DNA of 60,248 bases, the filler included, from Nitrospinae bacterium RIFCSPLOWO2_12_FULL_45_22 (GTDB lineage: Bacteria; 2-12-FULL-45-22), in the NCBI GenBank assembly GCA_001803565.1. It is 9 parts of 9 records of this genome, joined end to end, with 100 filler letters (N's around TTAATTAATTAA, not from the genome) between each part and the next. Parts side by side here need not be neighbours in the genome. Positions count along the whole stretch, not along the records: positions 47,152 to 53,446 come from MHDQ01000215.1; 8 more parts are not named here. The stretch is one strand, 5' to 3'. The notes under the pieces are model-generated. The model ran no database searches. It saw nothing but the letters and a program-made list of their open reading frames with translations, and was not told the origin of the DNA. The translations under genes and the position numbers were made by a program. Each line of letters starts with the position of its first letter. Within the stretch, counting starts at the first letter, position 1. Of the stretch, positions 3,353 through 56,160 are shown one piece after another.

Positions 3353-3406
3353 ATTCCCCTTGCACTCCTTTGTGAAGACATGTTAATATATCTGTNNNNN
3401 NTCAGC

Positions 3407-3481
3407 AGGCGCGTAGCTCAGTGGGAGAGCGCTTCCTTGACACGGAAGAGGTCGGGGGTTCAATCCCCCCCGTGCCTACCA
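3407..3481 (+). tRNA. tRNA-Val (GAC)
   Basis: Acceptor stem AGGCGCG/CGTGCCT, anticodon arm CTTCC-TTGACAC-GGAAG, GGTTCAA T-loop, encoded CCA. Confidence 0.97.
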
Positions 3482-3590
3482 TATTTCCTGATAAGTAGCA
3501 CGACACTCCATACATTATCANNNNNNNNNNNNNNNNNNNNNNNNNNNNNNNNNNNNNNNNNNNNNNNNNNNNNNNNNNNNNNNNNNNNNN

Positions 3591-5453: not shown

Positions 5454-5553
5454 NNNNNNNNNNNNNNNNNNNNNNNNNNNNNNNNNNNNNNNNNNNNTTA
5501 ATTAATTAANNNNNNNNNNNNNNNNNNNNNNNNNNNNNNNNNNNNNNNNNNNN
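5454..5553. other. Artificial contig linker (also 12327-12426, 17960-18059, 27589-27688, 33554-33653, 41397-41496, 47052-47151, 53447-53546)
   Basis: Identical 100-nt N44-TTAATTAATTAA-N44 blocks carrying stop codons in all frames. Confidence 0.98.
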
Positions 5554-12326: not shown

Positions 12327-12518
12327 NNNNNNNNNNNNNNNNNNNNNNNNNNNNNNNNNNNNNNNNNNNNTTAATTAATTAANNNNNNNNNNNNNNNNNN
12401 NNNNNNNNNNNNNNNNNNNNNNNNNNGATGATTTTCTGGGTAATTTTTATTAGACATGTAGCCTCCTCAATACTAATGATTTTATATCAAATTTTTACGT
12501 GAGTAAAGCAGATAGGCA

Positions 12519-17959: not shown

Positions 17960-18296
17960 NNNNNNNNNNNNNNNNNNNNNNNNNNNNNNNNNNNNNNNNN
18001 NNNTTAATTAATTAANNNNNNNNNNNNNNNNNNNNNNNNNNNNNNNNNNNNNNNNNNNNTTCCGGGTCAAGCCCGGAATGACAGGCAATGTTGGTATGCG
18101 CAAATAATTATGTCGCTCTGTATAAATTGATTCGAAAAAGTGATAAAAAAATATGAAAACGTTCACCGCAGAGGCACAGAGGCGCGGAGACCGTGGGGCA
18201 TGTCCGTAACTCGTGTCCGTCCATCAATGGACCCAGAAGACGGACACAGATCATGAAATTGCTCCGCGTCTCTGCGGTAAATAGCCCAGTGAACAT

Positions 18297-27588: not shown

Positions 27589-27688
27589 NNNNNNNNNNNN
27601 NNNNNNNNNNNNNNNNNNNNNNNNNNNNNNNNTTAATTAATTAANNNNNNNNNNNNNNNNNNNNNNNNNNNNNNNNNNNNNNNNNNNN

Positions 27689-33553: not shown

Positions 33554-33653
33554 NNNNNNNNNNNNNNNNNNNNNNNNNNNNNNNNNNNNNNNNNNNNTTA
33601 ATTAATTAANNNNNNNNNNNNNNNNNNNNNNNNNNNNNNNNNNNNNNNNNNNN

Positions 33654-41396: not shown

Positions 41397-41715
41397 NNNN
41401 NNNNNNNNNNNNNNNNNNNNNNNNNNNNNNNNNNNNNNNNTTAATTAATTAANNNNNNNNNNNNNNNNNNNNNNNNNNNNNNNNNNNNNNNNNNNNATAA
41501 ATTGGCCGGGGTAAAGAATGCTTTATCACTTTTGCCCAAGTGCCGAAATTCTATGCTGAAATAGTAATGTTACCGAAACCCAGACCTAGCAAGGGTTTAG
41601 GCAATCACAAATATTGTGCCAAAGAAGGTCAAAATTATCTTTCAAATCTCTGTATAATAGTAGTTTGGGTTAATTTTTGTGTTTCGTATTATGACCCCAA
41701 GGGCAGGAAGGGATT

Positions 41716-44700: not shown

Positions 44701-47051
44701 CTCAGCCTCCCCCGGGATAAACTGCTGGTAATTACTGGCCTTAGTGGGTCGGGCAAGTCCACACTGGCATTTGATATCTTGTTTTCCGAAGGGCAGCGCC
44801 GCTTCATTGAGAGCCTGTCGCCTTATGCCCGGCAATACCTGAAGCCGCTTAGCCGTCCCAATGTGGACTCTATCACTGGCATACCTCCCACAGTAGCTAT
44901 TGAACAGCGCAATACACAGGCAGGGAAAAAGTCCACGGTAGCTACTTTAACGGAAATCTATCACTATCTGCGCCTCCTCTATAGCAAGATCGGGCAGCAG
45001 TATTGCTATAAGTGTGGTCTACCGGTTTCTTCCCAAACCCAGGAAGAGATCTTTGAGTCTATTAAGAAAACCTATGCTGGCAGAGAGATTGTCATATTGA
45101 TCCCGGTGGTCCGGGCTAAGAAAGGGTATCATAAAGAGATACTGGAAAGGGCCCGGAAAGAGGGCTACCAAAAGGCCCGGATTGATAAAAAGGTAATGGA
45201 GCTAAAAGAAATACCCTCCCTGAAGCGCTACGTGGAGCACGATATAGATTTGGTGGCGGGTGAGCTGAAAATAGGTAGGGGGAAGGAGGAGAAACTGCAT
45301 AAGGTCATCATGTCGGCCTTGAGGGCTTCCACTGCTGGCATATATATCGTATCAGAAGGGATGCCAGAACAACTCTTCAGCCTCAAAGGGGTATGTTCCC
45401 GGTGTGGGCTGAGCCAGGAAGAGCTAGACCCCCGCCTCTTCTCCTTCAACATCCGCCATGGCGCCTGCCCCCAATGCAATGGCCTGGGGTTTGTGGAAGA
45501 CTTTGATCCGGGGCTTATCATACCAGACAAGAACCGCTCAATAAAAGATGGGGCTATCCTCCCATACCAGGGTGGGCCTTTCGATAGCCGCTTCCGGAAC
45601 AAGCTCTGGCGAGATATTCAGGATAAGCTCCGGATTCGGATAGATATACCTATAAAGAAAATTAGCCCTGAGAAGCAAAAAGCCCTGTCCTGTGGCACCG
45701 CTGGTTTTGAGGGGATTATACCGCAGATGAGACGGCTCATGCGGGATAGTTACCATAACAGCCTGATAGGGCGCCTGGGGCAATTCTTGCGGGAAATAGA
45801 ATGCCCGAAGTGCCAGGGACAGCGACTTAAACCCCAGGCCCTGGCGGTCAAGATTGCTGGTAAGTCCATCGCTGAGCTTACTGCCCTGACACCCAAAAAA
45901 GCCCTGGATTTCCTCTCCTCTCTATCTTTATCTAAGCGGGATAGCGCAGTGGCAGAAAATATCCTGCATGAGCTAAAGGTCAAGCTCAGGTTCTTAGAGG
46001 AGGTAGGGCTCTCTTACCTGACCCTGGAGCGTCGTGGTGATACGCTCTCCGCGGGCGAAGCCCAGCGGGTTAAGCTGGCAGCCCAGTTGGGCTCGAATTT
46101 ACGTGGCGTATGCTATATCCTCGATGAGCCTACTATCGGCCTCCATCCCCGGGATAATCAGAGGCTGTTGGCTATCTTAAAAGAATTGAGAGATAAGGGT
46201 AATAGTATTGTAGTAGTAGAGCACGACAAAGATACCATCCTGAATGCCGACCTGATTGTGGATATGGGCCCGGGTGGTGGCAGGAATGGTGGTGAGATTA
46301 TTATTGTAGGCAGTGTTGAAGAATTGAAAAGGAACGAGGGGTCCCTCACCGGTACCTGGCTCAATGGCCCTAAGCTTGTCCTGAACAACAGCGAAGGACC
46401 TTCCCTGGCACAAAAAGAGCAAGCCAGACAAACAAATTTTCTCCGGATAATAGGGGCGCAGGAGAATAACTTAAAAGATATTGATATCAGCATCCCTTTG
46501 GGGCGCTTTACCTGTGTGACCGGGGTCTCCGGTTCGGGTAAGAGTACCCTGGTTCAGGAGATAATTTATAAATCCCTGAAGAGGCATTTATCGGGGTATT
46601 ATGGCCGGGTAGGAGCCCATAAGGCCCTCGTGGGATTTGAGCAGTTGGAGCGGGTATTAGAGGTTGACCAGACACCTATCGGCAAAACCCCCCGTTCTAT
46701 CCCGGCATCGTATGTAGGTTTCTATGATGAAATCCGGCGCTTATTTTCTCAAATACCCGAAGCCCGTGCCCGGGGCTACCGCCCGGGGCGTTTCTCTTTC
46801 AATGTTAAAGGGGGACGGTGTGAGGCCTGCGCAGGCCAGGGTAAGATAAAGCTAGAGATGAGTTTCCTGCCCGAGGTCTATGTCCTTTGCGAGCAATGTC
46901 AGGGCAAGCGATTCAATAAAGAGACCCTGGAAATAACCTATAAAGAAAAGAATATAGCCGATGTGCTGGATATGACAGTAGAAGAGGCGGTAGAGTTTTT
47001 CCGACCCATACCCAAGATCTATCGTCCCTTATATATCCTCGAGGAACTGGG
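41716..47051 (+). CDS. uvrA: Double-length excinuclease ABC subunit A (3' partial)
   Basis: Two tandem UvrA units; four GxSGSGKS Walker A motifs; LFSFN..GAC and FSFN..GRC each present twice. Confidence 0.95.
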
Positions 47052-47213
47052 NNNNNNNNNNNNNNNNNNNNNNNNNNNNNNNNNNNNNNNNNNNNTTAAT
47101 TAATTAANNNNNNNNNNNNNNNNNNNNNNNNNNNNNNNNNNNNNNNNNNNNAATTGTATTTATAGATTCTGTTTTTTTGTATTGAGAAATTACCTCTTAG
47201 GAATATTGTTTTT

Positions 47214-47927
47214 TCACTTGACGATAACCTCAATAGGTGACCCCATTAGTTTCTTAGTAACAGTTCCCCCTCCCCTAACCCCTCCCACCAGGGGCGGGGA
47301 ATACTCATTGTCCCCTTGTATTCCTCCCCCTGTCCCCCTCACTGAGGGGGAGAAAGGGGGAGGAGGGAGGTTTAGGTGGGGGTGAACAGTTACGGTTTTT
47401 ATTTGTGCGATAAGGTTTTTTATGATCGTTTTGCAAGTCTCAATCCCCTCACCAGTAACTGTAGAGACAGGTACAATGGGTGCATCTTCCAGTAATGTAC
47501 CTTTCAAAATATTTTTTATATCTTCCTGCACTATGGCCAGCCATTCATCAGTTACAAGGTCTTTTTTCGTTAAGGCAACAATGCCGTGCCGGATTCCCAG
47601 GAGGTTAATGATTTCCAGATGTTCGATGGTCTGCGGCATAATGCCATCGTCAGCCGCAATAACGAACAATACGAGGTTTATGCTGGTTGCGCCTGCCAGC
47701 ATATTTTTAACGAAACGTTCGTGTCCCGGCACATCTACAATGCTGACCCTCTGACCTGAATCGAGGTCGAGATAGGCATAGCCTAAATCTATGGTCATCC
47801 CCCGCTGTTTCTCTTCAGGCAGCCTGTCGGTATCAATCCCGGTCAATGCCTTTACGAGGGATGTCTTTCCGTGATCAATATGACCTGCCGTCCCAATAAT
47901 GATATGTTCAACGTGATGAGTATTCAT
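47214..47927 (-). pseudogene. selB: SelB G domain, truncated after a repeat insertion
   Basis: [41 protein letters not shown]; stops before domain II. Confidence 0.75.
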
Positions 47928-48161
47928 GATTCGTGGAGACGCTGATTGTTTCATAAGTTTATCGTGTCAAGATTCATACTCGTTCCCAAACTCTCAGACT
48001 GNNNNNNNNNTCTCAGACTGAGGAATTCTTACTTTCCCCTCTTAAAAGGCTTGTCCCGTACTCCGATACGGGAAGGGACTAAGGGGGGTGTCCTTTACCC
48101 TCCCCTCTAAAAAGAGGGGTCGGGGGGTGTGTTCCTAGTATTCCCCTCTAAAAAGAGGGGA

Positions 48162-48545
48162 TTAAGGGGTGTGTTTCTTCCGTTCTTCACAATCTTCAAT
48201 AAAGCATCGAATTACTTGTAAAACCCCATCCGTATTTTTCATTGCATCTTCGTCGCAGAATCTCAGTACCGTTATCCCCAATTCCTTTAATCTCTCTTGT
48301 TTTAAGACGTCTTTCTTTACAATTTCTTCAAATGTATGAGTATAACCATCCAACTCAATAGCGAGTTTTAATTTGTTACAGAAAAAATCTAATATAAAAT
48401 TACCAATTGGTTTTTGCCGATGAAAATCATACCCCATCATTTTCTTACTCTTCAAGTATTGCCAGAGTTTAATTTCTGATTTCGTACTCTTATTTCTCAA
48501 TTTCCGTGCAAGTTCTTTGAGTTTTGGATGGTAATTTATCTTCAC
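48162..48545 (-). CDS. DUF559/Vsr-like endonuclease
   Basis: ARKLR..E..LW, FHRQKPIG, IELDG..H, G.TVLRF; flanked by cccctc..gagggg hairpins. Confidence 0.88.
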   Translation of the reverse strand: MKINYHPKLKELARKLRNKSTKSEIKLWQYLKSKKMMGYDFHRQKPIGNFILDFFCNKLKLAIELDGYTHTFEEIVKKDVLKQERLKELGITVLRFCDEDAMKNTDGVLQVIRCFIEDCEERKKHTP

Positions 48546-48563
48546 GGAAAACACACCCCTTGG

Positions 48564-48658
48564 AGGCTGTCTAAAAAGTCCATAAACCATACAAAAAGTA
48601 GGGGCTGAAAATCTTCAGCCCTTACATATGGTACGTTCAAAATACTTTTTGGACAGCC
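48564..48658. repeat. Small element with terminal inverted repeats and an internal GTAG-type REP hairpin
   Basis: ggctgtctaaaaagt / actttttggacagcc; gtaggggctgaaaatcttcagccc. Confidence 0.65.
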
Positions 48659-48782
48659 CCATAAAACACACCCCTTTGTCCCCTCTTTTTAGAGGGGAAA
48701 GCACGATGCTCCGTTAATTCGAGGGTTCAGGCTTCGTCGTGAGCAAAGCCGAACTGTTTCAACGTGAACCCGCTGGGGAGGC

Positions 48783-48873
48783 CACTAACGTTAAGGGTAA
48801 CCAGCGGCGACATCCAAGCTCGCCCGTCAGGCCACCCGCGCTTCTCGCCGTCTGGTTGACCCGCTTGTTAACT
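48783..48873 (-). other. attC site
   Basis: AGTTAAC aagcgggtcaaccagacggcga ... tcgccgctggttaccc ttaac GTTAGTG. Confidence 0.85.
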
Positions 48874-49994
48874 GCATATTTTTGTTACACATTCAACTGC
48901 TTGGCCAGGATCAGACAATACCTTACATTTGTACTTTTTATCAAACCCAATATTATTCCTTGAAACTAAGTCTCTCAGACTATGCTCAGTAAAAAAATAA
49001 TCAAAGTATGGTAATGCGGCTTGCGCATGGCGAAAATCTGACATGTCATTGGTTTTAACCTTCCTGTTAACATCTTGTCTAACTGAAGCATGCAGCCCTG
49101 CAGCAATAACTAATGTTGGGAAATAATTTCCAAGTTTGTTCTTTCTGAAAACATGATAAATAATATTTGCTATTTGTTTTCCTGAATTAGTAGCCTCCAC
49201 CTCCTCTGTTGCTGGCTTGTAACCCTTTCCCTTTTCAAATAAATAAATCAAAGCGTCTTCAAACAGATGTGAGAAGAGATCTATTACTCCAGCAATCTCT
49301 GAGAGGAAAAGTTGCTTGAATGAATTGTTTTCATTGGCGTACTTAATTTTATTTTCATTTAGTTTATCTGAAATATCGTTATATTTAGGCATGGCTAAAA
49401 TGTTTTCCATACCTATTACTCTTATCATGTCGGTTAAAGAAAGGGACCACATTTGGTCAAAAAATGCTTTCTGGATTACTAACGCCTCTTCTGGTGAGAA
49501 CGGAGTTGATGTAGGGTGCGATGCCCCATATATATATGACACTTTTGACCAAACAAAAATATCAGGATGGCATACAGAGTTCTTGCCCTTAGTTGAACTG
49601 TGAATGAAATAAAGAATTTCGAATTTTATTCTTTCTTCAGTAGATAATAACGCAACCCCCCTTGATAAATCGTCTATAAGGCTGGCCGAAGCGCTGAGAG
49701 TTGAAGGGTCTGACTGTAGCAAACTTCATAAAAATTTTCGTCACTGATTGGGCAAATTAACTTACCAGCTTCCACTCCATTGTGTAACAGCTCCAAGAGT
49801 TTCACGAAATTCTTATTTTCTTGTCTTCCCAAAATGACATTTCTTAATTCCAGCCAATAATTTGTGTCCAGGTAAATTTTCTTGCAATTTTTAATTTCTT
49901 CTCCAAGTTGTAGCCTTAACCCCTTTGTATATTCCTCAAGCGATATGTTTGGTTCTTGACGATGTTTTTCAAAAGTATTGACGAATTTCATCAT
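48868..49994 (-). pseudogene. PIN-like hypothetical cassette gene split by a 1-nt frameshift near 49722
   Basis: IYLDTNYW in the first part joins LQSDP.. in the second; C-terminal NDMSDFRH..PYFDYFFTE; cassette bounded by gttaactgc / gcagttaac. Confidence 0.65.
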
Positions 49995-50006
49995 TTTCGA
50001 AGCAGT

Positions 50007-50135
50007 TAACAAATTATTATACAGACCTGTATATCCTGCTAAAAGCGAGATATACGAGAAAAGGCACGTTGTGTACCGGAATTAAATCATGCAATATGGT
50101 GACTGTTTCCACACTGCTTTTGCCGGTTCAATCCC
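50007..50135 (-). repeat. attI/promoter-like direct repeat, copy A
   Basis: Colinear with copy B at an offset of 710; ends TATAATaatttGTT on the minus strand. Confidence 0.9.
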
Positions 50136-50293
50136 CGCACAGGAATTCAAACTGGCGGGTGAATCCAACTCCTGGGTTCAAGTTGCAAACTTGAACCCAC
50201 TTGGGGAGTCTTGCTCTAAATATTTAGTCCCTAATTCAGTCGAACGAAATGGCTGTAAGTGCCCATCTTTATTTAATACACGATAAAGAGGCA

Positions 50294-50695
50294 TTATTTA
50301 CTCGCCTTTCTTATGACTTCCTTTTCGATTTTGGGCGGAAGCTGCCAAAACCCAAGAGCACCGTTACAATAAATTGGCTCAATAGAGCGGGGATTTTTTA
50401 AAACAAAGCCATATGCACCGCCGAACCACTTCGATTTGGAATTTGTTACACAATCTACTATATCTACAAATCCGATAACTGCACCACGGGTTATGACTTT
50501 CAAATCAGGAATTTTCTTTCTATGATAATGTAGGAATAACTTTGCAGCTTCCTCATATTCTTTTATAGTCATTCCTTTTGCCGCATGAATAGCAACATTT
50601 CCTCGAAATAGGGTTGGCCAGTTTCTATTCTCTATATCTTTTCCAGCGAAAATAATTGCCCAAGCCCAAGGTTGCCTTACTGTTATAGCCTTCAT
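50294..50695 (-). CDS. ASCH domain protein
   Basis: MKAITVRQPWAWAI..GKDIENRNW..IHAAK..GALGFW. Confidence 0.9.
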   Translation of the reverse strand: MKAITVRQPWAWAIIFAGKDIENRNWPTLFRGNVAIHAAKGMTIKEYEEAAKLFLHYHRKKIPDLKVITRGAVIGFVDIVDCVTNSKSKWFGGAYGFVLKNPRSIEPIYCNGALGFWQLPPKIEKEVIRKASK

Positions 50696-50716
50696 ATTTA
50701 TGCCCTCATTTGCCAC

Positions 50717-50845
50717 TAACAAGTTATTATACAGTCCTGTATATTCTGCTAAAAACGAGATATGCGAGAAAAGGCACGTTGTGTGCCGGAATTAAATTAT
50801 ACAAAATGGTGGCTGTTTCCACGCTGCTTTTGCCGATTCAATCCC
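50717..50845 (-). repeat. attI/promoter-like direct repeat, copy B
   Basis: Ends TATAATaacttGTTAGTGGC in front of the ASCH gene. Confidence 0.9.
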
Positions 50846-50871
50846 ACAGCGGGTTTGCAACCTGAACCCGC

Positions 50872-51240
50872 TTAGGAGAGGTACTCGCACTTCGGACATT
50901 CATGCGTTGCGTTCTGGATACTCACGAAGTCTCGTGGAACCGGTCTCATGTAGAACGGCTTCGCCTTGGTCGAACAGTTCGGGCAGGTGGGAATATCACT
51001 CGGCCTCGCCGATGAAGCAGATGAGAGTTCGGCCACCTGTGCTTCCAGTACCTGATTGCGCTCTCTAAGGGAGAGACGCTCCTCACTCAGCTTGATATTC
51101 GTTTCGTGAAGTTCCGCGTGTTCCGCTTGGATGTTAACGATTAGTGATTGAATGGTATTCAACTCTGCCGCCACCTTGCGATCCTGAATCCGGCTCACAA
51201 GCTGCGTGAGCAGGTCAACTACGTCTTTGATTGCACCCAT
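50872..51240 (-). CDS. Hypothetical coiled-coil protein with C-terminal zinc ribbon
   Basis: Strong RBS; CPNC ... CPKC. Confidence 0.75.
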   Translation of the reverse strand: MGAIKDVVDLLTQLVSRIQDRKVAAELNTIQSLIVNIQAEHAELHETNIKLSEERLSLRERNQVLEAQVAELSSASSARPSDIPTCPNCSTKAKPFYMRPVPRDFVSIQNATHECPKCEYLS

Positions 51241-51253
51241 ATTCTCCTCCTCC

Positions 51254-51328
51254 TAACAAGTTATTATACAGACCTGTATATCCTGCTAAAGCGAGATATA
51301 CGAGAAAAGGCACGTTGTGTGCCGGAAT
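51254..51328 (-). repeat. attI/promoter-like direct repeat, copy C (shorter)
   Basis: Matches the GTT-proximal ~75 nt of copies A and B; ends TATAATaacttGTTAGGAG. Confidence 0.9.
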
Positions 51329-51362
51329 CAAGTTGCATACGCGAATCCGCTTAAAAGATATT

Positions 51363-53446
51363 TTATGGTGAACCTTCCGCAACGATTTTGATTTCATCCT
51401 CTGTCAATCCGTACAGTTCGTACACCAACTGATCAATCTGGCGGTCGGTGGCGTCAATCTGACGCTGGATGACGGTCTTGTCATGATCTGTCTTTGCCGA
51501 TGCTGATCGCTTATGCAGTTCAAGCATCTGTCTAACAAAAGCAACCACACTGTCATGGTAAGACTTGTCCGATGGGTTGGAGGAATCAATTGTGCGAATG
51601 GGAATTTGTGAAAAATACATTGGTTTGTATTCAAAATAACCACCCTGTTTAGTAGAGGAAATCGAATGCATAAAGAAATCAGCCACTCTTGAATTCAATG
51701 TTCCAAGCAGGTATAAATCGCCTGTGACTATTATAGACGTTTTATCATTTGAGTAAAAACCAGTATCATCCAATGTATATGACGCATTTTGAACAATACA
51801 CGGAACAATTATCTTTGGTTTTTCAAACTTAGCGTAGTAGTCAACTGCATCTTGAATTTCATACCATTTATAAGTTCCTGGTTTTCTTCCTTTCCAATTA
51901 CTGCCTTTCCAGCCCTTCGGTTTTGGCATAAGTCGTTCTTTATACTGACTTAAATATTTTTCTATGGCAGGATATTTTTGGATTTCGATCCCGCGTCTGG
52001 TAAAAATCAAGAATTGATTGCCCGTTGGCGGTTGATAGCGTTTAATATCCCGTCCGAGCAGGAATGGCTTTATAATCTCTTTGCTTTTAGTGTCTTCAGA
52101 AAAAAGCTTATTTCTTGTTTCTTCATCTATCACAAATGCCTCATTGAGGCCTGTCTTAATACCATAGTAGATTTTACCCTTTACGTATTCTTTTAAAGGA
52201 ACTCCGGTCTTTTTCAGCTTATTAAGCAGCGCAGAGCTTCGTTCATCTGTGAGCGACCAACCCGTATCATCAAGGGTGGATAGTTTTACAGAATGGCGGT
52301 TTTCTTTTACATAGCCTTCCAGACTTTCAAATTCAAGTGTTTTTACCTGGGTTGAGATAAAGGCGGATGGAGGTTTATCTTTCCCAATAACGAGGATGCA
52401 GGGATACGTTGTAGCTTGCTGGAATACAGGCAAATCTCCAAAATCTACAATTTGCGCAATACATTGTCGCTTTAACCACTTTCTGAGTGGTTCACCATAA
52501 TTAGCCCGCATCCACTTGTTTGCAACTATGTAACCGAAAATCCCTTTATCCCTGAGCAACGAAACACCTTTCTCAATAAAGTACGCATAGAGGTCGGACA
52601 TTCCATGATATACCGTGTATTTATGTTGGAAATATTCTTTCAGGTCGCCTAAGCCTTCTTGCCTTACATACGGCGGATTCCCGATTACCGCATCAAACCC
52701 GCCATTTTTCATGATTTCCGGAAATTCCTTTTCCCAATCGAATGGATTGACCTTGCGACGTTCCTCGTCTGACAAAACACCATTACCCGCTAAATGGGTT
52801 ACAACCCCCTCACCCCCTTTTCTAAGGGGGATATCTGGATTCCCCCTTAACAAAGGGGGATTTAGGGGGTTGTTATAAAAATCCGTGCCGATGAGTGAAT
52901 TACCGCACTTGATGTTATTGCCGAGGTCTGGCAGGGCGCGCTCGTGGAACATTTTGAGTTGCTTTACAATGGTCTGTTCAGATTCCCCTTCCAGCACTTT
53001 GAGGAGAAGCGAAAGCTTCGTTACTTCCACGGCCTGTGGGTCAATGTCCACACCGTAGATATTATTGAGGAGGATACGTCTGCGTTCAGCGGTAGTCAAT
53101 TGCCAATTTCGGATTTGGGAATTCGGATCCCCGATCTGAGTCGAGGACAAGTTTCGGACTTCGTCGTGAGCGCTCAGTCGAACGATTTCGGATTTTCCGG
53201 ATTGGTACAGCGCAGGTGTGCGGCCGGTTGCCCATTTTTCAGGGTCATTGGCTACGTACCAGTCACGATGCCAGTCGAGCAGGTATTGATATGCGCCCAG
53301 GAGGAATGAGCCAGAACCACAGGCGGGGTCGAGGATTTTTAGTTTCGATACATATTTTGGATTTAGGGGATTAACAACCCCCATTTCCCCCTTTGTTAAG
53401 GGGGACTTCACAACCCCCTTACCCCCTTTGCTAAGGGGGATTTTCC
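51363..53446 (-). CDS. Type IIG restriction-modification enzyme (Eco57I/TaqI-C-like), 5' partial
   Basis: ILDPACGSGSFL, IYGVDID, GNPPY, IDQLVYELYGLT. Confidence 0.9.
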
Positions 53447-53826
53447 NNNNNNNNNNNNNNNNNNNNNNNNNNNNNNNNNNNNNNNNNNNNTTAATTAATT
53501 AANNNNNNNNNNNNNNNNNNNNNNNNNNNNNNNNNNNNNNNNNNNNTGACCGAAGACCGTCCCCTTTATTCAGATATTGACAGGATATATCAATTGATCA
53601 GAAATAACTATCAATTGATTGAAAGCGCCCTATCCTAAGTTTTCAAGGGACACTCCCCATCTGTACAAGAACTTATTTCTGGTTTATCTTTTTCGTAGAT
53701 TCCTTACTCCTATAACCCTGCTATTGATGCTATTCAATGATTGGTATGCCTGAAAGTACTCTATGATTTGTGTGCTCGAAGGCCCCCTTCGCTCGGGGTT
53801 AACGGTGAGCCTACGCTACGACGCTA

Positions 53827-53884
53827 CGCTAACGACCTAAATCAGCGGTGGCTATTAGCCATCCGCTGGATTTTCTTGTTAGCC
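53827..53884 (-). other. attC site
   Basis: GGCTAAC (stop) aagaaaatccagcggatggc..gccaccgctgattt aggtc GTTAGCG. Confidence 0.85.
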
Positions 53885-54139
53885 CATCTCTTTAATCATT
53901 CTTTCATATTCATCATGAGTGCCAATCCATACCCAAATGAAGTCATTACCATCTTCAACTGCGAGTGCTCTGTGATTCATTCCAGCTCGCACTGACCAAA
54001 ACTTACCGACTTTTTTAAAATGAAGGGATGGATGTGAAGGATTAATTTTAAGTAGCTCGAAGTTCTTTTTCGATATCTTTTGGACAGGTTCTGGTAGGTT
54101 CTCAAAGCATTTCCAGAAACGGGCTGTTGTCCGATGCAT
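53879..54139 (-). CDS. RelE/ParE-like toxin
   Basis: RFWKCFENLP..HPSLHFKKV..WSVR..WIGTHDEY. Confidence 0.8.
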   Translation of the reverse strand: MHRTTARFWKCFENLPEPVQKISKKNFELLKINPSHPSLHFKKVGKFWSVRAGMNHRALAVEDGNDFIWVWIGTHDEYERMIKEMG

Positions 54140-54340
54140 TTAAAGTTCCTTGAGCTTTCCCTTCGCTTTTTCATCAAGGGCTTCCCTGATCAGAAAATCC
54201 AGTTTTCCTGCCTCTGAATCGGCTTCAATCTGCCTATCCCATTTTTCCCAATCCTTTTCAGAAAACCACTTTCTAAGGCGAATATATTCCTCTTCTGAGA
54301 GGGATTCAATTGCGGACTCGATTTCCTCTGCTTTTGACAT
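54140..54340 (-). CDS. Cognate antitoxin
   Basis: WDRQIEADSEAGKLD; abuts the toxin. Confidence 0.75.
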   Translation of the reverse strand: MSKAEEIESAIESLSEEEYIRLRKWFSEKDWEKWDRQIEADSEAGKLDFLIREALDEKAKGKLKEL

Positions 54341-54358
54341 ATCTAATCTACCCCCTTT

Positions 54359-54753
54359 CTATAAAGCCTTTAAATTCAGTCCAATATCGTAAGCTTGTTT
54401 TAGATATTCTGGTTGTTTTAATACCGATCCTTTCTCCATTATATCACTAAAGGAAAACATATTTAATATTTTAACACCAAGACAACCCAGAAGGCGATTA
54501 TAAAATTCCACTAATATTTTAGATTCATCATCCACTTTTTTTTGATTCATAGGCGTTATAATAATAGCCTTCTTCCCTGCGGTCAATTCCCTGTTCTGTA
54601 AATGATAGTAAAAGAAAAGTCTGTCAAGAAATGTTTTCATCAATCCCGTAACCCCGCACCAGTAAAGAGGAGAAGCAAGTATCATTAATTCTACAGCGTT
54701 GATTTGATTACGGACTTCAGTCATAGCATCTTGAAAATTACATTCGGATTTTC
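54359..54753 (-). pseudogene. Flavodoxin/iron-sulfur flavoprotein family fragment, 5' end cut by an IS
   Basis: LASPLYW..TGLMKTFLDR; lacks its N-terminus. Confidence 0.7.
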
Positions 54754-55029
54754 GGCATCCTTCATTTTTGACCAAAAGTAGTTAACAGTTTTAAAGAGCA
54801 AAGTATTTTTTATGATATTTGGGTGAAAAAATCAATAGTTCAAAGAACTTTTAAGAGGGTTGATCTACTAAGAGATCAACCCAATGTTGCTTCAATTTTT
54901 TACCAGTAAATATCTCAATGGGGGCCTTACCCTTTCTTTTGCCATCAACGAATCTTCTATGATTATGATAGAACATGATCAGGTTTAGGGCTTCCTGGGT
55001 TATATTGCCTTTGCAGGAGTTGAGGTAAC
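54754..55029 (-). mobile_element. IS remnant: transposase-like C-terminus plus terminal repeat
   Basis: RYLN..LIMFYHNHRRF..GKRKGKAPIEIFTG; terminus ggcatccttcatttttgaccaaaagtagttaac shared with the MITEs. Confidence 0.65.
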
Positions 55030-55080
55030 GCCCCGCTTCATCCGCCGCGGTACGCGGTCGGCTGGAAGCGGTTGTTAGGC
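55023..55080 (-). other. attC site
   Basis: GCCTAAC aaccgcttccagccgaccgcg..cgcggcggatgaagcgg ggc GTTACCT. Confidence 0.85.
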
Positions 55081-55098
55081 GGATATACATTACTTAAT

Positions 55099-55485
55099 TT
55101 ACCACAGCCGATCAACAGGATAGGCATCAAAGGAAGGATCTGCACTCAGAACAGGAAGCCGCTCAAACATGGACTGCCCGACCAGCAGCCGATCAAATGG
55201 ATCACGATGGTGAAAAGGCAGCGTGGACACAACAGTAATATGGCCCATCTTGATGTCCAGCAATCCAATGCCGTTAATGCTAAGCTGCTGCGGAATAAGC
55301 ACATCGAAAGGTTGAGCCAAGCTGAGTTTGCCGAGGCTGAGCTTAATGGCCATCTCCCAAAGGCTGGCTATGCTGAATAGCTTCTCGTTACTCCTATCTT
55401 CGATCAGCGCCCGCGCCTTCTCACTAAGTTTCGGGCTGCCCATGATAAACCAAAGGAAGCTATATGTGTCCAGCAAAAGCTTCAT
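55099..55485 (-). CDS. vapC: VapC PIN-domain toxin
   Basis: LLDT..LW, SLWEMAIK, HRDPFDRLL. Confidence 0.9.
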   Translation of the reverse strand: MKLLLDTYSFLWFIMGSPKLSEKARALIEDRSNEKLFSIASLWEMAIKLSLGKLSLAQPFDVLIPQQLSINGIGLLDIKMGHITVVSTLPFHHRDPFDRLLVGQSMFERLPVLSADPSFDAYPVDRLW

Positions 55486-55709
55486 TTCATGTACTCGTTG
55501 AAATCCTCGAGCGGATCATCGAAGTCATCGGACATAGTGACTAACCCTCTCGCGCTCCCAAACTGGGGGCGCGGCTTGGTCTGCGAAAGCGGCGACAATT
55601 TAACGACGGGTCGATCGTCTTTCGTAATGACGACTTCTACCCCACTCATCGCCTCCTCAATCAAATCAGGCAGATGCATCTTTGCCTCATCGATATTTAC
55701 TTGATGCAT
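55482..55709 (-). CDS. Phd/YefM-type antitoxin
   Basis: EAKMHLPDLI..VVIT..FGSARG..SDDFDDPL. Confidence 0.85.
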   Translation of the reverse strand: MHQVNIDEAKMHLPDLIEEAMSGVEVVITKDDRPVVKLSPLSQTKPRPQFGSARGLVTMSDDFDDPLEDFNEYMK

Positions 55710-55796
55710 GATTTACAACCCCCTTTCTCCTACCTCAAGGATGCTACTTCACAAGTATAACACACCAAAAGGAAAGGCACTTCAGCGAATAGTTAG

Positions 55797-55857
55797 GCTA
55801 AACCACCTCACGCATCAGCGGCGAGCGAAGCGATTCCGCTGGATGCGGTTGTTAGGC
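55797..55857 (-). other. attC site
   Basis: GCCTAAC aaccgcatccagcgg..ccgctgatgcg..GTTTAGC. Confidence 0.75.
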
Positions 55858-56160
55858 TCACTCATCATCTTGTTCAGGTCTGCCCAGCACATCCATGGCT
55901 CCATGGATGACAGCCAGAACGTCAATCTGGTCTGCCTTTATGTGGTAGATGATACGGAAGGAACCTTCGATCACTTCGCGAATCTGGTCAACATCATATT
56001 CGGGGACTCTACGGCCTGAGAAAGGGAATTCGGCAATTTGTTGAGATCTTCGGGTAAGCCGATCCACCATGCGCCTGGCATATTCGGGCGAATCCTGAGC
56101 AATCTAAGCATAGATGGCGCCAAGATGCCCTTCCGCTGTATCGGTCCAGTGGACTTTCAT
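55858..56160 (-). pseudogene. ParE/RelE toxin with an internal amber stop
   Basis: MKVHWTDTAEGHLGAIYA*IAQDSP..FPFSGRRVPE..RIIY..VIHG; TAG at 56104-56106. Confidence 0.85.

Follow-up and report, generated by a model that had tools for sequence, protein, structure and literature searches.

The window analysed here spans 60,248 nucleotides of Nitrospinae bacterium RIFCSPLOWO2_12_FULL_45_22, in which nine MAG contigs are concatenated with N linkers, and the repeat region is confined to one of them, the 6.3-kb contig C215. Read along its minus strand, C215 carries a type IIG restriction-modification (RM) gene, three cassettes (named genes C, B, and A), each preceded by one copy of a repeated module, and the 5' part of selB. 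The RM gene is the conserved left flank of the array, and selB is the right-hand chromosomal flank of the island. No Pfam family was found for gene C (at 1e-3) or gene B, and gene A matched neither a Pfam nor a PADLOC family.

Table 1 Features of contig C215, in window coordinates and in minus-strand order.
Feature	Position	Strand	Description
Type IIG RM gene	51363..53411	(-)	Eco57I, N6_Mtase, and TaqI_C domains; 5' end cut by the contig end
Copy 3, left flank	51329..51362	(-)	Half REP-like hairpin (AAGCGGATTCGCGTATGCAACTTGA) fused to the core, just past the RM stop codon
Copy 3, core only	51257..51328	(-)	Crossover 51257/51256; -10-like TATAAT 51268-51263; terminator-like hairpin 51323-51309; directly after the RM gene
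Gene C cassette	50872..51240	(-)	122 aa; coiled coil and Cys-rich C-terminus; begins TTAGGAG directly behind copy 3
Left of copy 2	50849..50878	(-)	REP-like hairpin GCGGGTT...AACCCGC (50849-50871), with CTCCTAA (50878-50872) ahead of it
Copy 2, core and 55-nt upstream D block	50720..50848	(-)	Crossover 50720/50719; TATAAT 50731-50726; hairpin 50787-50773
Gene B cassette	50294..50695	(-)	About 133 aa from ATG 50695; begins TTAGTGG directly behind copy 2
Copy 1, upstream part	50141..50208	(-)	Linker, then perfect 12-bp hairpin TGGGTTCAAGTT/AACTTGAACCCA (50173-50199) within CTCC...GGAG
Copy 1, core and D block	50010..50140	(-)	Crossover 50010/50009; TATAAT 50021-50016; hairpin 50077-50063
Gene A cassette	48868..49994	(-)	Two overlapping ORFs (49674-49994, 48868-49722); begins TTAACTGC directly behind copy 1
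Gene A canonical attC	48783..48873	(-)	R'' = CAGTTAAC, complementary to the cassette start; R' = G|TTAGTG; one long imperfect hairpin
selB, 5' part	47214..47954	(-)	GTP_EFTU; first ~187 residues near-identical to those of SelB in related MAG G002

The three copies of the repeat (50010-50208, 50720-50871, and 51257-51352, all on the minus strand) are mutually 91-97% alike, and no further copy occurs in the 3.67-Mb assembly. The repeat search returned a 148-nt repeat present twice at 86% (50007-50154 and 50717-50864), together with 37-nt and 47-nt sub-blocks present three times at 91-97%. Three-way alignment delimited a near-invariant 75-nt block terminating in AA(C/T)TTGTTA, beyond which the sequences are unrelated. 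Every copy on C215 ends in ...TGTATAATAA(C/T)TTG|TTA and is followed by a different gene, whose start codon lies 15 nt (gene A, ATG 49994), 24 nt (gene B, ATG 50695), or 16 nt (gene C, ATG 51240) past G|TT. An earlier sequence-only reading of this DNA had described three direct-repeat copies that diverge at the GTT, with a gene 15-25 nt beyond it, and the search, the alignment, and the measured distances bear this out; its word "tandem" does not apply, as the copies are interspersed with genes. That reading had also named assembly duplication as a possible refutation. The copies differ by substitutions and indels, and contigs from two independent DNA runs bridge gene A to copy 1, copy 1 through gene B to copy 2, and copy 2 through gene C to copy 3, confirming that the C215 repeat is real and no assembly artefact. 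One DNA run contains an alternative form in which the RM gene, the module, and gene A follow one another directly (joint 50132-51349). Contigs from two wastewater RNA-library runs cover gene C (50881-51317, with 8 differences) and copy 2, and may reflect DNA carry-over. The RNA-library contigs over gene C reach 51317 and 51309, upstream of the predicted start; such contigs break at repeats and neither show starts nor prove transcription.

The cassette marks reported earlier for two of the genes were found on gene A (GTTAACTGC...GCAGTTAAC, together with a foldable canonical attC) and on gene C (GTTAGGAG...CTCCTAA, the last motif at 50872-50878). CTCCTAA complements the 7 nt that open the gene C cassette, and the gene C stop codon lies within it. 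Gene B carries no such mark and no inverse core matching its cassette start. Potential attC sites were searched by a constrained AAC...GTT hairpin scan, a heuristic that is specific (0 in 10 shuffles) and insensitive, missing attCs readable by eye in L019, L026, L028, L049, L053, and L063. The sole attC it identified on C215 is that of gene A (48783-48873). An attC covariance model was dropped, as 13 attCs with variable loops could not be aligned (MAFFT) and RNAalifold returned no pairs. The DNA-fold z-scores of the repeat were -0.65/+0.10 and -0.84/-0.54, versus -2.41 for the attC. The whole interval at copies 2 and 3 reached -1.3 to -1.8 with a branched fold, and its minimum-energy folds contain no R''-R' or L''-L' pairing. 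In an attC, RYYYAAC and GTTRRRY pair at the base of a single hairpin with L''/L'; the module has the R' box and no such hairpin. The earlier statement that the repeat is neither an attC nor a long hairpin is thus supported by z-scores near zero and by the scan.

A genome survey centred on the order of the related MAG G002 detected the element in 17 of 92 genomes, and the repeat family amounts to 57 distinct copies in related metagenomes and MAGs. Similarity among the 52 complete copies ends at G|TT; 46 different sequences lie behind it, and 49 of the 52 begin with TT, in agreement with the claim that variable, often attC-terminated cassettes follow the GTT. In the 47 standard-length copies, nearly all positions through ...AACTTGTT are at least 90% conserved, and identity drops to 28-64% from four bases past the G of G|TT. 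The uniformly high conservation across 75 nt in close copies may reflect merely recent spread. Diverged copies retain only the last 30-45 nt, with TATAAT exact in 15 of 24 and A2 and T6 kept in most variants. A 7-mer complementary to the cassette start was found downstream in 20 of 53 copies, compared with 312 of 2700 mismatched pairings (11.6%). In about 15 of those 20, this 7-mer stands at the head of a canonical attC (read by eye), and 13 such attCs were extracted; cassettes bounded by G|TT, with an inverse core complementary to the cassette start, are present in gene A and among the related followers. Canonical attCs of 51-92 nt share arrays with the module.

The surroundings of the family combine a recurrent anchor with diverse contents. 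For seventeen copies, the sequence directly ahead is a type IIG RM gene's 3' end; 15 different first cassettes are found behind these copies. In G002, the order is selA, a nucleotidyltransferase/HEPN pair (toxin-antitoxin-like by our reading), ORF6N, RM, module, cassette, module, DUF4238 cassette, attC, and selB, so that the array fills the selA-selB interval; C215 ends with the same selB. Copies also occur at unrelated loci, ahead of trmO and between rnr and metK. Three copies precede a trmO-TPR gene pair that is unlike a cassette, and four genomes examined for an "empty site" upstream of trmO all lack that gene. RM 3' fragments are duplicated inside arrays, which speaks for homologous recombination as well. 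The left junctions fall into at least five classes. The half-REP-hairpin class of copy 3 recurs in 10 related copies, and in many copies a REP-like hairpin is all that separates the module from a stop codon. Some left sides are themselves cassette junctions: behind a canonical attC stands G|TTAGCTGTGG... or G|TTAAGTGG..., continuing into the module (L057, L042), or else G|TTGCAAACCCGCTGTGGG (L059). At L059, a canonical attC is joined to a GTT located in a hairpin loop. The left REP-like hairpins also stand by themselves, or in inverted pairs joined by variable linkers, at numerous further sites in G002 and G003, and the TGGGTTCAAGTT/AACTTGAACCCA type of copy 1 occurs likewise elsewhere in related genomes. 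No match to the module was found in 72,556 plasmid records, nor any Rfam match at 50000-51400 with E up to 1; over 47000-56000, only chance matches outside the repeat appeared. The follower genes are often Abi, HEPN, HNH, SieB, or Mrr-like; about 10 of 43 have domains that we read as typical of anti-phage defence, and 29 of 43 have no Pfam family.

No integrase gene adjoins the module. A tblastn search of the flanks found no intI within 2.5 kb of any of the 57 copies, and no IntI above the cut-off is encoded anywhere in G002, which includes a related contig of 42.9 kb; in two large or closed assemblies, intI lies 65-110 kb from the module. These results agree with the claim that no copy sits beside intI. 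The broader wording "no integrase" is overstated: C215, which carries no IntI, is only 6.3 kb long, and two intact integron integrases (hits of 467 and 439 bits, above the TIGR02249 cut-off) are encoded elsewhere in the genome, on C243 and C304, with canonical arrays alongside. Since the window is made of nine joined contigs, the absence of intI from it means little. IntI above the cut-off was found in 8 of 17 genomes with the element versus 34 of 75 without it, showing no association, and the seven genomes with the most similar copies have no IntI, these being MAGs of unknown or low completeness. Comparison with the intI-proximal regions of eight integrase loci gave no homology to the module, the only match being an 18-nt hairpin in L149.

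The end of the module has a layout resembling an attI site. In attI1, the L-to-R spacing is 5 nt, and the accessory integrase-binding repeats are DR1 and DR2. The last 19 nt of the module show an arrangement of L-box-like heptamer, 5 nt, and R box comparable to that of attI1 and two attI sites validated here: GTATAAT-AACTT-GTTAG in the module, ATATAAT-TAAAG-GTTAGTG in the validated attI beside the C243 IntI, and ATAAAAA-TGAAT-GTTAGGC in G025. The likeness in the L box is A/T-rich and of low information. The attI1 L box, given as CCCTAAA in PMC12901181, stands upstream of an R box GTTRRRY. GTATATC, GATATAC, and GTATAAT recur within the core of the module, and, as noted above, the position beside intI that defines an attI is lacking. 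A conserved TG-TATAAT is located 5 nt ahead of the crossover. The sigma-70 scan flagged copy 1 alone (TTAGCA-18-AATAAT, 9/12 matches) and found no good -35 at 16-18 nt from TATAAT; its seven sites in the region are no more than in shuffles (5.3 +/- 2.0).

Collectively, the directly supported features are a repeat family with an exact right boundary, cassette followers, no attC fold, no adjoining integrase, and a constant RM flank with variable first cassettes. As the module ends exactly at an integron-type crossover and carries promoter-like sequence, it probably serves as a short dock that also switches on captured genes. We tentatively favour, at somewhat less than even confidence, a hairpin-less attI-like site fused to an outward promoter and served by IntI in trans. 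The repeat would be a conserved gene-less unit separating cassettes in an integron-type array; this array lacks its own integrase and has a type IIG RM gene as its upstream anchor. Its working part would be the 3' end, GGATATACAGGTCTG-TATAAT-AACTT-G|TTA, which may act as a double-stranded attI-type site with the L-box-like GTATAAT, 5 nt, and an R box containing the G|TT crossover. A predicted TG-extended -10 promoter directed outward overlaps this recombination site, and a 7-2-7 palindrome occupies the place expected of an operator, TATACAGGTCTGTATA being the putative regulator-bound sequence. We infer that an integron integrase from elsewhere in the genome recombines double-stranded DNA here and joins cassettes to G|TT, and that the promoter is active. 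The promoter would then have the ribosome site and start codon of a captured cassette 0-53 nt downstream, giving each captured gene its own transcription start. "Gene plus module" units may resemble in behaviour the DeltaattI-type cassettes known from class 1 and class 2 integrons, and mobility of this kind would explain why the module recurs within one array. The sequence-only reading had likewise proposed an attI-plus-promoter module with capture in trans. The G|TT junction, the variable cassettes, the absence of an adjoining intI, and the attI-like layout speak for that proposal, and the lack of homology to intI-proximal regions and of any IntI association speaks against it.

Other explanations account for parts of the same evidence. 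The module may be a mobile gene-less promoter cassette that IntI moves whole, standing merely upstream of whichever cassette was then first and offering no target to incoming ones; we regard this main rival as doubtful. It fits a module located between cassettes, bounded on the right by G|TT and at some loci (L057, L042, L059) by a cassette junction on the left as well, present in several copies per array and at unrelated loci (trmO; rnr-metK), and sense-strand promoter activity in cassettes that lack a gene is established (PMC11014356). However, the module has no foldable 3' attC, which the usual excision and insertion need, a left G|TT occurs at some loci only, and the left boundary is variable, with its five or more junction classes. 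Furthermore, the constant RM flank with 15 first cassettes behaves like a fixed platform. A dispersed promoter-operator repeat (a terminator in one subfamily) on which IntI never acts, spread with REP/BIME-like palindromes or by homologous recombination among defence islands, would explain the independently dispersed left hairpins of G002 and G003, the duplicated RM 3' fragments, the lack of IntI association, and the copies ahead of ordinary-looking genes such as trmO; the Abi, HEPN, HNH, SieB, and Mrr-like followers would also require tight separate control. We nevertheless judge it unlikely, as it leaves unexplained the exact G|TT boundary, the TT start of 49 of 52 followers, and the attC inverse cores of about 15 followers that are complementary to the bases abutting the module, and homologous exchange reshuffles flanks but cannot make 46 new junctions.

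It is very improbable that the interval from the inverse-core-like box to G|TT makes up a single long attC specific to the lineage, comparable to the 120-nt repeats in Vibrio cholerae. The interval does occupy the attC position at the 3' end of the upstream cassette, the CTCCTAA of gene C that matches its own start lies directly ahead of it, and at L052 GTGCTAAC, which matches the cassette start, sits 8 nt ahead of the first hairpin. Yet the R''-R'/L''-L' pairing is missing from its branched minimum-energy fold (z -1.3 to -1.8), the constrained scan finds nothing in it, its left part is dispensable, gene B has no matching inverse core, and canonical 51-92-nt attCs are present in the same arrays. 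An assembly duplication, or an insertion-sequence or MITE terminus, carries hardly any weight as an explanation. A dispersed repeat with one sharp end could suggest either, but the three copies differ by substitutions and indels and their junctions recur in independent assemblies. The opposite end of the repeat is variable, neither an inverted terminal repeat nor a target duplication can be seen, and the flank, plasmid, and Rfam searches returned, respectively, no integrase within 2.5 kb of the 57 copies, no match among 72,556 records, and no family. A group II intron remnant and an IS1111-attC-type insertion were rejected, given the absence of an Rfam intron match, the absence of an integrase within 2.5 kb of any copy, and the unfixed left end. 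The left hairpins as miniature attCs were dropped as a main reading, given their independent dispersal.

According to integron theory, capture and expression are tied to one attI/Pc beside intI, and distal cassettes are mostly silent. A junction module that is both recombination point and promoter would allow arrays to be built and expressed far from the integrase, with the cassettes mutually insulated. A fuller version is possible, though rather unlikely: ~30-75-nt attI-like sites with an operator-controlled promoter would serve as portable integrase-less landing pads, planted downstream of RM genes and re-copied in arrays, from which a remote IntI could build defence islands, each gene with its own switch. 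That version would amount to a distributed integron, its platform divided between an integrase locus and many remote att/promoter modules. The defence-like followers (about 10 of 43) and the arrays on RM genes suggest that the module may be a general means of assembling defence islands in Brocadiales-related groundwater bacteria. Tools that rely only on intI and attC would miss module arrays, and the module would provide a sequence with which new single-gene defence candidates could be mined, with 29 of 43 followers lacking a Pfam family.

Among known systems, the attI and Pc platform shares with the module the G|TT crossover in an R box, an A/T-rich heptamer that resembles an L box and lies 5 nt upstream, a promoter (predicted in the module) leading into the first cassette, and a constant left flank with a variable first cassette. 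The module differs in standing away from intI in all 57 copies, in being multi-copy within an array, in having an RM gene as conserved neighbour, and in showing no detectable homology to real attI regions. A CALIN is defined by two or more attC sites without an integrase nearby. Like CALIN and SALIN, C215 has attC-bearing cassettes distant from any integrase, but it holds one canonical attC by the insensitive heuristic, and its other junctions are the module, which is invisible to attC-based tools. REP/BIME elements are a class of palindromic repeats. The GGGTTCA..GTTGCAAAC..TGAACCC hairpins left of the module resemble them, being found alone or as inverted pairs at gene ends in related genomes, and this likeness is limited to the dispensable left part and does not extend to the conserved core.

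The designation "new system" in the sequence-only reading is overstated, as gene-less promoter cassettes, DeltaattI-type cassettes, and attG sites have already been published. In a preprint (bioRxiv 10.1101/2022.09.11.507474), attG sites are double-stranded non-att targets with GWT at the cleavage point, where an inserted cassette is expressed if a promoter is near, as would hold for the module; in contrast, they are scattered over genomes and low in information. Their hotspots are defined by a right-hand motif, which is replaced on insertion and is thus absent from the comparison with the module. DeltaattI-type cassettes of class 1 and class 2 integrons (PMC12901181) are excised and inserted by IntI1, and they likewise have a downstream non-hairpin site, derived from attI, instead of attC and lie inside arrays. 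In clinical mobile integrons these DeltaattI sites can be recognised as parts of attI1 or attI2, whereas the module is promoter-bearing (by prediction), highly repeated, and located in an integrase-less chromosomal array. The gene-less promoter cassettes of Vibrionaceae superintegrons (PMC11014356) are likewise units between cassettes, and such a unit would drive the downstream cassette independently of Pc. They are ordinary attC-ended cassettes of diverse sequence, whereas the module is one conserved family without an attC fold and has its putative promoter on the recombination junction itself.

All three copies of the junction repeat, or module, lie on contig C215, where every gene is on the minus strand. 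Read in that direction, the contig opens with a type IIG restriction-modification (RM) gene, after which copy 3 precedes gene C, copy 2 precedes gene B and copy 1 precedes gene A (two ORFs plus an attC). A hairpin repeat comes next, then a DUF559 gene, and last the 5′ part of selB. The first ~187 residues of the encoded SelB are near-identical to those of SelB in the related MAG G002; the two therefore share the selB flank at least. The sequence-only reading had described three repeats with no integrase. The repeats are borne out, and this part of the window indeed holds no integrase; however, the 60,248-base window joins nine contigs (C208-C216), not one molecule, separated by N runs with TTAATTAATTAA linkers, and the genome (321 contigs, 3.67 Mb, an estimated 85% complete) has integrons elsewhere. 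The absence of an integrase from the window therefore says little.

On the minus strand the copies share an almost invariant 75 nt ending GGATATACAGG(T/A)CTGTATAATAA(C/T)TTG|TTA, beyond which they are unrelated, and three unrelated genes have their start codons 15, 24 and 16 nt further on. Another 55 nt upstream is common to copies 1 and 2, copy 3 being shortened. The source assembly, when searched, yielded only these three copies. An assembly duplication was ruled out, because two independent DNA runs gave contigs that span the gene/repeat junctions. One run also contains a joint variant in which the RM gene is followed by the module and then directly by gene A, and further contig joints fall at crossover points. 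The cassette marks hold for two genes: gene A opens with G|TTAACTGC and closes with GCAGTTAAC, which heads a canonical attC, and gene C starts G|TTAGGAG with CTCCTAA at its stop codon, while gene B has no mark of this kind. In line with the earlier observation that it is not a long hairpin, the repeat itself does not fold (fold z-scores -0.65/+0.10 and -0.84/-0.54 vs -2.41 for the gene A attC).

Positions of features in the window and of the spans across which no feature is to be read
Feature	Contig	Position	Strand	Remark
Spans not to be read across		3396-3590, 5454-5553, 12327-12426, 17960-18059, 27589-27688, 33554-33653, 41397-41496, 47052-47151, 53447-53546
Contig with the module	C215	47152-53446		6,295 nt
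Type IIG RM gene	C215		minus	Eco57I/N6_Mtase/TaqI_C; truncated by contig end
Copy 3	C215	51257-51352	minus
Copy 2	C215	50720-50871	minus
Copy 1	C215	50010-50208	minus
Contig joints	C215	51253-51255, 50002		crossover points
Gene A region	C215	48868-49994	minus	overlapping ORFs 49674-49994 and 48868-49722
One-base length difference	C215	49720		inside gene A, one contig of run X4
Gene A attC	C215	48783-48873	minus	91 nt; one long imperfect hairpin
Second gene-less unit	C215	48740-48782
G/C-run palindromes	C215	52797-52877, 53375-53443, 48083-48178, 48664-48706, 47265-47400
Open frame, 1,795 aa	C214	41716-47103		runs off contig end
Second cassette-array fragment	C216	53547-60248
Canonical attCs (heuristic)	C216	53827-53884, 55023-55080, 55797-55857
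Example of small gene pair	C216	55099-55485, 55482-55709	minus

Several side observations concern this DNA. The one-base length difference means that the window copy of gene A may carry a frameshift or an assembly error. A family of G/C-run palindromes (CCCCCTTnnnnAAGGGGG, CCCCTCTAAAAAGAGGGG) lies on either side of the DUF559 gene, in frame within the RM reading frame, and in selB, which is interrupted after residue ~187; since read depth at these palindromes is very high in all four runs, the family is a small, widespread repeat tolerant of coding regions. By eye, the long frame of C214 resembles a UvrA-type ABC ATPase that has additional repeated units. The attCs of C216 lie between small genes that resemble toxin-antitoxin pairs by eye, and the module is absent from this contig. 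A second conserved gene-less unit, G|TTATGCC-TCCCCC-GCGGGTTCRCGTTRCAAACC...GAACCCGCG, forms a hairpin with GTTRCAA in its loop and often directly follows a canonical attC (on C215 and at related loci L048, L049, L053, L062 and L111); at L059 a canonical attC is joined exactly at the loop GTT.

Outside this genome, an exact 27-mer of the core matched three MAG contigs (a Planctomycetota bacterium, Candidatus Wunengus of the Brocadiaceae, and a 1.8-kb contig binned as Micrarchaeota) and an exact 20-mer matched 70 metagenome stretches, together giving 57 distinct copies. In the archaeal bin a near-identical module precedes an AbiU2 gene; because the contig is so short, mis-binning is more likely than transfer. 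In 47 standard-length copies, conservation is 90% or more at almost all positions up to AACTTGTT and then falls to 28-64%. The 52 complete copies are followed by 46 different sequences, starting with TT in 49 (43 TTA, 6 TTG). For 20 of 53 copies, the 7 nt that come straight after the G are found again downstream as their reverse complement, vs 11.6% of mismatched pairings; ~15 of these recurrences head a canonical attC by our reading, and 13 were extracted. The refuting outcome named with the sequence-only reading, copies elsewhere that neither diverge at the GTT nor lead into attC-ended genes, is therefore not what is observed.

The left boundary of the module varies. The longest form (~260 nt) starts with two REP-like hairpins (GGGTTCAAGTTTGCAACTTGAACCC and its inverted variant) with a linker between them. 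Pairing is kept among different hairpin variants (for example, GGGGCAGG...CCTGCCCC vs GGGTTCAGG...CCTGAACCC). Since they also occur singly, or in pairs around different linkers, at many sites in G002 and in another related genome, G003, these hairpins are a separate dispersed repeat outside the working core. Seventeen copies sit directly after the 3′ end of a type IIG RM gene, with 15 different first cassettes beyond; the bodies of these RM genes are 37-100% identical, the last ~55 codons are conserved, and a few are 3′ fragments only. In G002 the order is selA, a nucleotidyltransferase/HEPN pair (toxin-antitoxin-like by our reading), ORF6N, RM, module, cassette, module, DUF4238 cassette, canonical attC, RM 3′ fragment and selB, with nothing attC-like upstream of the RM gene. 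Diverged copies from more distant genomes come after a type I hsdS gene or are located downstream of a type IIG gene with a few genes in between. Fragments of ~170-200 nt from RM 3′ ends are duplicated within or at the far end of arrays (L111, on contig C115 of G002, between DUF4238 and selB; L028 and L049, inside arrays). A hairpin repeat stands before each fragment, and at L028 and L049 another module comes after it, which suggests that the island has undergone homologous recombination or nested insertions.

A Pfam family was assigned to 14 of 43 different first genes (DUF4238, AbiU2, AbiV, AbiTii, SieB, two HNH, Mrr_cat, DUF6602, DUF5677, NUDIX, aspartyl protease, DUF2321 and TrmO); about ten carry, by our reading, domains typical of anti-phage defence genes. 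PADLOC models matched 8 of 44 scanned proteins. G002 also has copies in front of an Abi_alpha region and in front of a HigB/HigA pair located between rnr and metK.

Along the gene strand from its 5′ side, the core comprises a G+C hairpin of 5 bp with a T-run, a possible second hairpin (GTATATCC...GGATATAC), the palindrome TATACAG-GT-CTGTATA, and TG-TATAAT followed by AACTT and G|TT. The first hairpin is terminator-like by scan in all three copies, the region holding 4 such sites vs 2.4 +/- 1.5 in shuffles. More diverged copies keep only the last 30-45 nt (TATAAT exact in 15 of 24), and the hairpin further upstream decays without compensatory change. Because the -35 is poor and a sigma-70 scan flags only copy 1, in another register, the promoter is a putative one, predicted from an extended -10 that is conserved. 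In its last 19 nt the module is laid out as heptamer, 5 nt, GTTRRRY, as are the two attI junctions that could be validated, ATATAAT-TAAAG-GTTAGTG and ATAAAAA-TGAAT-GTTAGGC; since no homology to 8 intI-proximal regions was found, this resemblance is one of layout only.

The source genome has two IntI matches above the TIGR02249 cut-off, on contigs C243 (467 bits) and C304 (439 bits), plus many fragments. At E up to 0.001 there are 34 matches to TIGR02249; besides the two intact genes, many are partial or split (contigs C115, C136, C317, C7, C17, C287 and C248), and the genome contains several decayed integron platforms. Our attC heuristic, a constrained-fold hairpin scan, placed 7 attCs next to the integrase of C304; by the same scan C243 has 2 and the adjacent window contig C216 has 3. 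Beside the C243 IntI the first cassette begins ...ATATAATTAAAG|GTTAGTG and its attC begins CACTAAC, which validates this attI junction. No module copy was found beside intI: tblastn with the C243 IntI gave no match in the 2.5-kb flanks of the 57 copies. The MAG with the best-assembled array, G002 (42.9-kb contig), has no IntI match above cut-off, and two large or closed assemblies have 65-110 kb between the copies and the closest IntI match, with the copies in the wrong orientation for one array.

Integron-type integrase action at the module end would be required, because 46 different junctions lying exactly at G|TT with bona fide cassettes need explaining. As this end has no attC fold, the simplest reading is a double-stranded target like attI or attG. 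A constant RM flank with changing first cassettes would be the behaviour of a platform site, and recurrence within arrays would match ΔattI-type units (a gene, then an attI-like site), which IntI1 is described as excising and inserting (PMC12901181). With the -10 box on the L-box position, any landing cassette would gain a start site a few nt ahead of its first base. We tentatively favour, at somewhat less than even confidence, an attI-like double-stranded site that carries a putative outward promoter and that IntI would act on.

The main rival reading, in which the module moves as a gene-less promoter cassette in its own right, seems rather unlikely to us; such cassettes are described in Vibrio (PMC11014356), and the module end lacks their attC type of fold. 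Module and IntI presence are not associated in the order of G002, where 17 of 92 genomes have the module (IntI above cut-off in 8 of 17 vs 34 of 75 without it, by our own cross-tabulation of MAGs whose completeness is not known). A regulatory repeat unrelated to IntI is nonetheless improbable for a module with so many junctions at G|TT. With the fold scores, the long-attC reading is very improbable; an IS end or artefact, for junctions seen in independent runs, is scarcely credible.

The attI-like reading invites comparison with attI1, in which the L box and R box are 5 nt apart. The module, with its heptamer, 5 nt and GTTRRRY, is alike in layout only; in attI1 the L box, CCCTAAA, is described upstream of the R box (PMC12901181). 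Gene-less promoter cassettes, attI-derived sites in arrays, integrase-less attC clusters and non-att genomic insertion are each already known alone, the last as integrase-mediated insertion with expression from nearby promoters (bioRxiv 10.1101/2022.09.11.507474). The literature searched contained no report of their combination. The combination consists of one conserved, multi-copy, hairpin-less junction module with a putative promoter on the crossover, anchored at RM genes and feeding a defence-like array without its own integrase.
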